UHGV virus genome: UHGV-0272730
Source of the DNA: a virus
Reading direction: 5' to 3' (one strand)
Length of the DNA: 64,000 nucleotides
Position numbers and translations under genes: made by a program. This document shows positions 58,866 through 59,645 of the stretch, one piece after another. The first letter of the stretch is position 1. The number at the start of each line of letters is the position of its first letter. The notes under the pieces were generated by a model, which saw only the letters and a list, made by a program, of their open reading frames with translations, ran no database searches and had not been told where the DNA came from.

Positions 58866-59645
58866 TCAGCTTATGAATTTGAACTTTTTAGAATACAGCA
58901 AGTAGTGAACTTCATCCTGATTTGTTGTGTAGATGTATGCTGCTGGGTAGTTATCAAAGAACACCCCTTCATATCTTCCAAACGGGTCAACTGGGAACAT
59001 TTCACTGTTACACATACCCATCTCACTAACCAGAGGGTAACTAACCTCAACCTTGCCATCAACAAGCTGATAGAGGGTAACTTGATTAGTCTTCCCGTCA
59101 CTTAGCACGACACCATCATAGAATTGTGGTGCTGAGGTAGCATACTTAGGGGTAACTACACTTGCCATTGCTTCATCATAGACGTAGAGGTACACATCAA
59201 CGTTATACATAACACTATTAATGAGGCTTTTCACAGCTTGTGCATCTAAACCGCCTATACCTGCCCCAATCATGGGTAAACCAATCTTACGAATGTTGTG
59301 CAGCCAGCAAAATTTACGGAGTTTTTCTAGTGACTCCACTAAGTATCGGTATGATGCACACTTCCCAACATCCAACTGTGTATATAGGTTAAAAATGTAA
59401 CCATACTCCGTTCGAGCATGTGACACCTCACCAACCATCTGGTATCCGATATCATGAGCACTGTAGCCAAACTTTTTATGGAATTTCCGGTCAGCTTCTT
59501 CAGCTTTTGGGAAAATCTTAGCAATTTTTTGAGCGATTCCAGCACCCATGAGGTTACGACAGTTGCAACCATGAGCAATTAACTCAATATCTGTGTTTTT
59601 GAAGGCAGCCAGTAAGTTACCTTTTACAACTTTTACAATACCCAT
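58866..59645 (-). CDS. macrodomain protein, TARG1/OARD1-like (Macro_2), with extra C-terminal domain
   Basis: LIAHGCNCRNLMGAGIA...F and IGLPMIGAGIGGLD segments align by eye with human TARG1 motifs LAHCISEDCRMGAGIA and LSMPRIGCGLDRL; about 110 aa extra C-terminal. Confidence 0.7.
   Translation of the reverse strand: MGIVKVVKGNLLAAFKNTDIELIAHGCNCRNLMGAGIAQKIAKIFPKAEEADRKFHKKFGYSAHDIGYQMVGEVSHARTEYGYIFNLYTQLDVGKCASYRYLVESLEKLRKFCWLHNIRKIGLPMIGAGIGGLDAQAVKSLINSVMYNVDVYLYVYDEAMASVVTPKYATSAPQFYDGVVLSDGKTNQVTLYQLVDGKVEVSYPLVSEMGMCNSEMFPVDPFGRYEGVFFDNYPAAYIYTTNQDEVHYLLYSKKFKFIS

Follow-up and report, generated by a model that had tools for sequence, protein, structure and literature searches.

Previous work identified phage T4 Tk.4 as AdfM (anti-DarT factor Macrodomain), the sole hit of a transposon screen on DarTG2, and showed that a clean knockout sensitises T4 (preprint 10.1101/2025.11.20.689424). 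PhiKZ gp104, the AdfM of a chimallivirus, is a Lys-type macrodomain (N23/K78) that strips DarT2-installed ADP-ribose (ADPR) from DNA in vitro (PMC13309987). Another phage macro protein, the Poa1p-like Adpp, is encoded between Adps and Namat in ~15% of NARP1 operons, and turns ADPR-1''-phosphate, the product of aRES defence, into ADPR, from which NARP1 rebuilds NAD+ (Osterman et al. 2026, preprint 10.64898/2026.01.28.702374). NARP1 was discovered in Felixounavirus Bas63 (genes 79-80). Here we describe a 259-residue protein, referred to as the macro protein, that is encoded by a 64,000-nucleotide stretch of UHGV virus genome UHGV-0272730 (the window), which is the genome of a Felixounavirus, i.e., a FelixO1-like myovirus. 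The macro protein is an uncharacterised member of the known ADP-ribose/NAD counter-defence family and not a new kind of system; its distinctive features are an orphan domain, an allele cassette and co-residence with NARP1. By analogy with T4 AdfM, we lean tentatively toward reading it as an AdfM-type enzyme, an orphan that resembles DarG2 and would strip ADP-ribose from DNA thymidine with a Gln-type site. The gene, its two domains and the segments of its putative active site are as follows.

58866..59645, minus strand: macro gene, encoding the two-domain macro protein (PHROG 335); a complete open reading frame (ORF), ATG to stop, of 259 codons plus stop
59175..59645, minus strand: N-terminal macrodomain, residues 1-157, of the ALC1-like / TARG1-DarG-Poa1p class (Pfam, AlphaFold2, Foldseek)
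58869..59174, minus strand: C-terminal orphan domain, residues 158-259, with a beta-rich fold and two short helices in the AlphaFold2 model
59559..59576, minus strand: loop-1 motif A24-H-G-C-N28-C29, with Asn28 at the position of SCO6735 Asn27 and Thermus aquaticus DarG (TaqDarG) Asn22
59376..59390, minus strand: strand end N86-L-Y-T-Q90, followed in the alignments by a loop of 8 residues, L91-S98, that ends before Tyr99
59250..59282, minus strand: diphosphate-binding loop G122-L-P-M-I-G-A-G-I-G-G132, with Gly131 in the TARG1 Asp125 column

The Pfam Macro profile PF01661 matched residues 25-140 of the macro protein with 28.9 bits, against a gathering cut-off of 22 bits, and PHROG 335 ('phosphatase') covered the full length with E=1e-85. 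Among PDB sequences the best match was human TARG1 (5e-8), followed by TaqDarG (6e-7), with Poa1p, Mtb DarG and SCO6735 also found; the match to yeast Poa1p was confined to the N-terminal ~60 residues. The AlphaFold2 model, computed from a 33-sequence alignment, had a predicted local distance difference test score (pLDDT) of 93.7 and a predicted template modelling (TM) score of 0.89. When the model was compared with the PDB by Foldseek, 243 matches were obtained at E<=1e-3, and the top matches listed were all macrodomains or designs built on them (top entries 5m31, 5m3e, 4j5q/r/s, 5m3i, 6lfr and 2fg1). TM scores were highest for TARG1 (0.86-0.88), followed by TaqDarG (0.83-0.84), Mtb DarG (0.82), BT1257 (0.82) and Poa1p (0.78). 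We are confident in the prediction that residues 1-157 form a complete macrodomain, with a three-layer alpha/beta/alpha fold and an intact ADP-ribose pocket. By its nearest structural and sequence neighbours the macro protein is of the ALC1-like class (TARG1/DarG/Poa1p/SCO6735), not the MacroD or PARG type. An earlier note on the window, made from the letters and their translations, had called an ORF at exactly 58866-59645, strand unstated, with a macrodomain at residues ~20-160 and an extra domain behind it; the ORF is real, the profile search and the comparison with TARG1 and DarG structures that it proposed were both positive for a macrodomain, and the extra domain is a real, folded segment of ~100 residues.

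The only defence or NCBI models that matched the macro protein were those for DarG, i.e., PADLOC DarG (57.8 bits) and NCBIfam antitoxin_DarG (56.7 bits). Coverage was of the N-terminal half of each model only, positions 2-150 of 329 for PADLOC and 2-153 of 338 for NCBIfam, and the equivalog cut-off of 250 bits for the latter (NF048014) was not reached. On the same two models T4 AdfM scored 36 and 30.3 bits and the Adpp-type protein 48.5 and 38.7 bits; that the macro protein scores above both favours an AdfM-like function.

The residues of the active site were located by HMMER pairwise alignments and by a multiple alignment of the macro protein with TARG1, BT1257, T4 Tk.4, an Adpp orthologue and single-domain relatives. 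In both, the column of TARG1 Lys84, which is that of DarG Lys80 and SCO6735 Gln85, holds Gln90, a Gln in all the phage homologues, and the column of TARG1 Asp125 holds Gly131. The earlier note had quoted two signature motif strings, both of which are present in the sequence, and had put an Asp of the second in the TARG1 GLD position. That assignment was in error, as Asp134 of 'GGLD' falls opposite TARG1 Gln128 and is D, N, K, H or E across the homologues. Across 33 homologues the invariant residues are G9, I23, H25, G26, N28, A38, D52 and G72, together with N86-L-Y-T-Q90, P124, G127, G129, I130 and G132. Asn28 lies opposite SCO6735 Asn27 ('IAHVCN') in the PDB sequence alignment, and BT1257 has the Gln and its preceding Asn in the same columns as the macro protein, the two sharing the motif x-N-x-x-[TG]-Q. 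The truncated-sequence PDB alignments to SCO6735 and DarG confirmed Asn28 only; the position of the Gln comes from the multiple alignment with BT1257 and TARG1 and from a structural statement in PMC9411070. The loop after Gln90 is LDVGKCAS, 8 residues that include Lys95, and the position of Poa1p Ser30 is occupied by Leu32.

In Streptomyces SCO6735 the Lys84/Lys80 position is taken by Gln85, which Asn27 holds in place, and the Q85A and N27S changes are inactivating (PMC9411070). The wild-type enzyme efficiently strips DarT-installed ADP-ribose from DNA thymidine, and both TARG1 and SCO6735 accept protein as well as DNA substrates (PMC9411070). By these alignments the macro protein has an active site of the Gln type, in which Asn28 is predicted to hold Gln90, where TARG1 has its Lys/Asp dyad. 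The earlier note had taken a lack of catalytic Lys/Asp equivalents as a reason to drop its proposal. The equivalents are indeed lacking, but the test itself is invalid: since SCO6735 (Gln85/Asn27) and T4 AdfM (NLYTQ) function without the dyad, its absence refutes a TARG1-type mechanism and does not refute activity. Given the Gln-for-Lys site throughout PHROG 335, the TARG1 dyad is unusable as a test of function for phage macrodomains.

T4 Tk.4, a gene beside vs, was found by tblastn at 34% identity, and the macro protein, T4 AdfM and the Chloris orthologue of the Gary Adpp all belong to PHROG 335. The macro protein shares with T4 AdfM the HGCNC, NLYTQ and IGAGIG motifs and the 8-residue post-Gln loop, and each is the product of an orphan gene of a virulent coliphage that is not adjacent to NARP1. 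Exactly 8 post-Gln/Lys residues were found in the macro protein, in 29/29 Ounavirinae proteins, in T4 AdfM and in TARG1, the phage members also having HGCNC and Y-T-Q. T4 AdfM differs in being a single domain of 155 residues without the C-terminal domain, in falling in a separate clade and in having a phenotype, shown genetically. In the mechanism that we propose, a host DarT2-type toxin would ADP-ribosylate thymidines in single-stranded phage DNA after infection; the macrodomain would bind the ADP-ribose and hydrolyse the C1''-N3(thymine) bond in a water-mediated, Gln-positioned reaction, as proposed for SCO6735; and free ADP-ribose would be released and replication restored, as inferred for T4 Tk.4/AdfM. 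Since such a reaction detaches a leaving group from ADP-ribose C1'', the enzyme might also act, secondarily, on ADPR-1''-phosphate. The general idea of the earlier note, a counter-defence enzyme acting on ADP-ribose marks or metabolites, is well supported by the PHROG 335 homology to T4 AdfM and Adpp, while its mechanistic detail, the Lys/Asp pair, is not upheld; the idea is also not new, having been published for these two homologues.

PhiKZ gp104, also a phage orphan macrodomain, counters DarTG2 and has been shown biochemically to strip DNA ADP-ribose, but it is Lys-type, is closely modelled on DarG2, is imported into the phage nucleus and is a single domain (PMC13309987). DarG2, represented by TaqDarG (5M31/5M3E) and Mtb DarG (5M3I), agrees in fold (TM 0.82-0.84), in the Asn28/Asn22 position, in loop length and in being the N-terminal macrodomain of a two-domain protein; it differs in its catalytic Lys80, in an unrelated C-terminal domain, in its darT partner and in the 250-bit model cut-off that the macro protein does not reach. 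SCO6735 and BT1257 have the Gln at the Lys84/Lys80 position, the loop-1 Asn and the strand motif, but have a mobile, Lys-bearing loop of 13-14 residues (14 in BT1257) versus 8, and their sequence similarity is weaker than that of TARG1 and DarG. The long mobile loop with its Lys residues is said to aid DNA binding in SCO6735/BT1257, DarG and TARG1 having the short form (PMC9411070). TARG1/OARD1 and Poa1p share the fold class and include the best sequence and structural matches, though TARG1 has the Lys84/Asp125 dyad, and Poa1p has sequence similarity over only the N-terminal ~60 residues and Ser30 in place of Leu32.

That the macro protein is an Adpp-like ADPR-1''-phosphatase, acting in trans with the phage's own NARP1 as its sole or an additional role, is possible but unlikely. 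On this proposal ADPR-1''-phosphate made by aRES, a RES-domain NAD+ phosphorylase, would be converted to ADPR, and Adps and Namat would then rebuild NAD+. In its favour, the macro of Vibrio phage Chloris, encoded in the order Adps-macro-Namat and near-identical to the biochemically validated Adpp of NARP1-AP (Vibrio phage Gary KNV71_gp137), shares PHROG 335 and a Gln-type site with the macro protein, the Poa1p match covers the N-terminal 60 residues, and both reactions remove a C1'' leaving group. Further, E. coli, Klebsiella and Enterobacter harbour aRES systems, and the Felixounaviruses encode NARP1, among them Bas63 and EcoM2. In EcoM2 the gene order, on one strand, is Adps, Namat, two small genes, rIIA, rIIB, an SLT-like gene, the HAD phosphatase, spanins, small genes and macro; its Adps and Namat carry the expected Pfam domains, and Namat is in the same place in ECML-1. 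In the window rIIB runs off the right-hand end and NARP1 lies just outside. A survey of 80 IMG/VR loci found NARP1 7.5-9.8 kb upstream and on the same strand in every Ounavirinae two-domain macro locus that reached that far. The macro gene is, however, not within two genes of NARP1, as the Adpp genes are within two genes of Adps/Namat. When the sequences of all NARP1-adjacent macros (Table S1 of 10.64898/2026.01.28.702374, which lists no Escherichia or Salmonella phage) were aligned with our set, 18/18 distinct PHROG-335-type members, the Gary Adpp among them, had an aromatic-rich stretch of 11-15 residues that separates the catalytic Gln from the conserved Tyr (e.g., QYNYGREEG and QYHWHAHKVAPGRNTD), and most also had HQxNC and Y-G-Q; all are single-domain. 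The macro protein has none of these features. At the loci of the 51 closest single-domain relatives, only two Namat-like matches were found within 10 kb, one a NARP2 neighbour and the other 9 kb off, and NARP1 has not been reported from T4, whose motif set is that of the macro protein. Membership in PHROG, Pfam, PADLOC or NCBIfam models was set aside as a means of telling AdfM from Adpp, as all three proteins match the same models. The number of residues in the post-Gln loop (8 as opposed to 11-15) may offer a simple way of sorting the members into AdfM-like and Adpp-like.

Unlikely as well is a hydrolase for some other ADP-ribose conjugate or signal, such as His-ADPR or other Thoeris signals, ADP-ribosylated RNA (CmdTAC-type), mono-ADP-ribosylated proteins or O-acetyl-ADP-ribose. 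The ALC1-like macrodomains are promiscuous, TARG1 and SCO6735 acting on proteins and DNA (PMC9411070), several GenBank records carry the label O-acetyl-ADP-ribose deacetylase or ADP-ribose binding module, a new specificity might come from the orphan C-terminal domain, and other phage enzymes target ADPR-based signals (PMC13232231). But no PHROG 335 homologue is known to act in this way: of the two relatives that have been characterised, one is linked to the DarT2 system (genetically) and the other to ADPR-1''-phosphate. Also, no genomic association points to any of His-ADPR, ADP-ribosylated RNA, mono-ADP-ribosylated protein or O-acetyl-ADP-ribose. Very improbable is a non-catalytic role, in which the macro fold would be a binding module, making the protein an ADP-ribose sponge or a direct inhibitor of a defence enzyme. 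Catalytic mutants of SCO6735, DarG and TARG1 do still inhibit DarT by interaction (PMC9411070), ICP1 AdfB neutralises DarT through binding, and some records label the gene 'high-affinity ADP-ribose binding module'; the invariance of all the known Gln-type catalytic-site residues in 33 divergent homologues, though, speaks for selection for catalysis. The version of the earlier note, a TARG1-type enzyme using a Lys/Asp dyad and a covalent Schiff-base mechanism, is scarcely credible: TARG1 is the best PDB sequence match and has the top TM score, but the dyad is already refuted by Gln90 for Lys84, by Gly131 for Asp125 and by the variable Asp134, opposite Gln128.

Several observations weigh against the de-ADP-ribosylase of AdfM type that we favour. 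Identity between the macro protein and T4 AdfM is only 33-34%, and in a neighbour-joining tree, which is not decisive, the Ounavirinae proteins form their own clade, outside the T4 clade and apart from both reference clades. The evidence for T4 AdfM is genetic and from a preprint only (10.1101/2025.11.20.689424), and the biochemical demonstrations of DNA de-ADP-ribosylation come from the Lys-type PhiKZ gp104 and from the bacterial SCO6735, neither of them a Gln-type phage macro. Our literature search found no report of a Felixounavirus phenotype under DarTG2 or aRES, nor of the macro gene in PhageMaP. The long mobile loop of SCO6735 and BT1257 is missing from the macro protein; loop length is in any case an empirical marker within phages and not mechanistic proof, since a long loop does not keep BT1257 and SCO6735 from acting on DNA. 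The C-terminal domain has no similarity to the DarT-binding domain of DarG, the PADLOC and NCBIfam DarG profiles matching the macro half only. Finally, the same-strand NARP1 of the Felixounaviruses makes a metabolic role plausible. Only 5/2,748 phage records had two matches to the macro family, and a single enzyme may therefore have more than one role.

For residues 158-259, neither structure nor sequence comparison gave any relatives. The possibility that this C-terminal domain is an acidic mimic of single-stranded DNA, or a basic DNA binder, was considered and discarded, because its isoelectric point ranges from 4.6 to 9.4 across homologues with no conserved charge. We read it as a lineage-specific add-on; its extreme divergence and cassette-like allele exchange suggest contact with a variable partner. 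More doubtful still than the Adpp-like role is a pair of extended readings of the whole protein. In one, the macro protein would be a two-module counter-defence factor, with a C-terminal partner-recognition or DNA-tethering module whose cassettes track host defences; the domain might bind DarT2 or another defence protein as the second domain of DarG does, with an unrelated fold, or might instead tether the enzyme to replicating single-stranded DNA. In the other, a dual-substrate enzyme could both repair DarT2-modified DNA and feed ADPR from ADPR-1''-phosphate into the phage NARP1, linking two NAD-centred defences.

The macro gene is core to the genus yet allelically hypervariable. A full-length two-domain homologue was present in 257 phage records. 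From the neighbours, which are as the earlier note had described them (a Cys-rich 66-residue ORF, an HAD phosphatase and small unknown genes), an accessory island had been proposed; the gene is instead essentially genus core and the neighbours are syntenic across the genus. Across 29 Ounavirinae loci the macro gene is the most divergent of its block, with median identities to the window proteins of 52.9% for the macrodomain and 27.6% for the C-terminal domain, compared with 90-98% for nine neighbours. Much of the gene lies within an allele cassette.

58712..59503, no strand assigned: allele cassette of 792 bp, from codon ~48 to the stop plus 154 bp downstream, delimited by blastn breakpoints against P219

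Nucleotide homology of 92-94% to Salmonella phage P219 ends at 58712 and restarts at 59503, inside the conserved N-terminal motif region, and the cassette shows no homology at the nucleotide level to the allele that most Felixounaviruses carry. The segment was found at 93-99.9% identity in 13 of ~258 related records, from Escherichia and Salmonella phages; these include phage finno, which infects MG1655, but not Bas63, a carrier of the majority allele. Identity to Salmonella phage BPS17L1 (MG646672) is 99.9% over the cassette and only 95.5% over the flanking 5.5 kb, a contrast which indicates that the cassette has recently passed by recombination between Felixounaviruses of Escherichia and those of Salmonella. 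The divergence and the cassette pattern suggest an arms-race signature, as expected of a gene engaged with variable host factors, and the orphan domain and allele exchange mark a local arms-race hotspot. Felixounaviruses are widely used in biocontrol and therapy against Salmonella and E. coli. Should the macro protein counteract DarTG2, assist NARP1 against aRES or do both, it would help explain the broad host range of the genus, and the AdfM concept would extend from T4 and the jumbo phages to a third major group of myoviruses.

The 5.5 kb surrounding the gene shares 98% identity with Escherichia phage ECML-1, and for many Felixounaviruses of Salmonella and Escherichia the figure is 92-95%; the macro protein is 100% identical to a protein of Salmonella phage FSL SP-107. 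In relatives GenBank labels the gene 'macro domain protein', 'Poa1p-like', 'phosphatase', 'O-acetyl-ADP-ribose deacetylase' or '(high-affinity) ADP-ribose binding module'. Three further features of its neighbourhood are listed here.

59646..59846, minus strand: 66-residue Cys-rich gene (PHROG 2210), upstream of the macro gene, from the ORF list
58787..58835, minus strand: intrinsic terminator, ~30 nt past the macro stop, with a 13-bp stem followed by a U-run
61697-62392, minus strand: HAD-type phosphatase of 231 residues annotated 'polynucleotide kinase' (PHROG 3970), with HAD motif I (DIDGV)

The TAA stop of the 66-residue gene directly abuts the macro ATG, and a GGGAGAG Shine-Dalgarno sequence at 59653-59659, 7 nt before the macro start, lies inside the 3' end of the upstream gene, so the two genes are probably co-transcribed and translationally coupled. 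The macro gene is the last gene of this small operon, in an early-type gene block, and the transcription unit ends at the terminator, for which the RNA fold has a dG of -25.2 kcal/mol (z = -4.06). The block consists of small genes set apart by repeated terminator-promoter-ribosome-binding-site cassettes, downstream of rIIA and rIIB, a layout consistent with early expression. No darT or ADP-ribosyltransferase-like gene was found beside the macro gene, the neighbours being small phage genes, spanins and the HAD phosphatase. The 61697-62392 protein looks like a phosphatase-only relative of T4 PseT; no kinase P-loop was visible in it, and it had no Pfam or NCBIfam match.

Within 55056-58492, intergenic cassettes of 99, 69 and 55 nt are repeated in 3-4 copies with 70-100% identity. 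Each has a GC-rich hairpin, a promoter-like site and a ribosome-binding site with start, and separates small early genes; two ORFs (55460-55879 and 57626-57934) are thereby given near-identical N-termini, 'MENLKMAI...'. The segment 58649-58787, which separates the macro terminator from the promoter cassette that comes next, contains three exact minus-strand copies of the motif TCATTTTNNANNNGTGCAG, at 58649, 58694 and 58769, which occurs nowhere else in the 64 kb (chance expectation 0.06). At the equivalent place 2-4 copies were found in 33/33 Ounavirinae loci, with both macro allele classes, and in 0/55 other loci. No Rfam match was found for the segment; protein-binding sites, phage-specific promoters and a small RNA are possibilities.

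Other loci in the comparison set also bring together macro or NAD-related genes. In a T4-like IMG/VR contig (6581-10462) a short-loop macro of this family lies ~800 bp downstream of an NMNAT-Nudix and Nampt pair; this was rejected as a short-loop macro next to NARP1, as the pair is of the NARP2 type, which does not use ADPR, and the layout indicates that this second NAD+ pathway of phages can likewise have macro genes beside it. In Bacillus phage FADO, where NARP1 is elsewhere in the genome, a COG3236/NADAR protein is encoded two genes upstream of a long-loop macro (3195-3674 and 4001-4471), and the two could be a paired AdfN-like/macro counter-defence locus. EcoM2, as in Felixounavirus genomes, has a small 'NAD synthetase' and a MazG-like pyrophosphatase annotated upstream of the nrd genes (11966-13464), which are candidates for further NAD/nucleotide counter-defence genes. 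Elsewhere in the window an array of 23 tRNA genes (34405-40187) is followed directly by a minus-strand ORF for a 471-residue DUF2828/DUF7788 protein (40353-41768). PhageMaP found that Bas63 gp130, a Ro60-like protein encoded directly upstream of tRNA genes, counters the Ppl defence system, and the 471-residue protein is probably its homologue.

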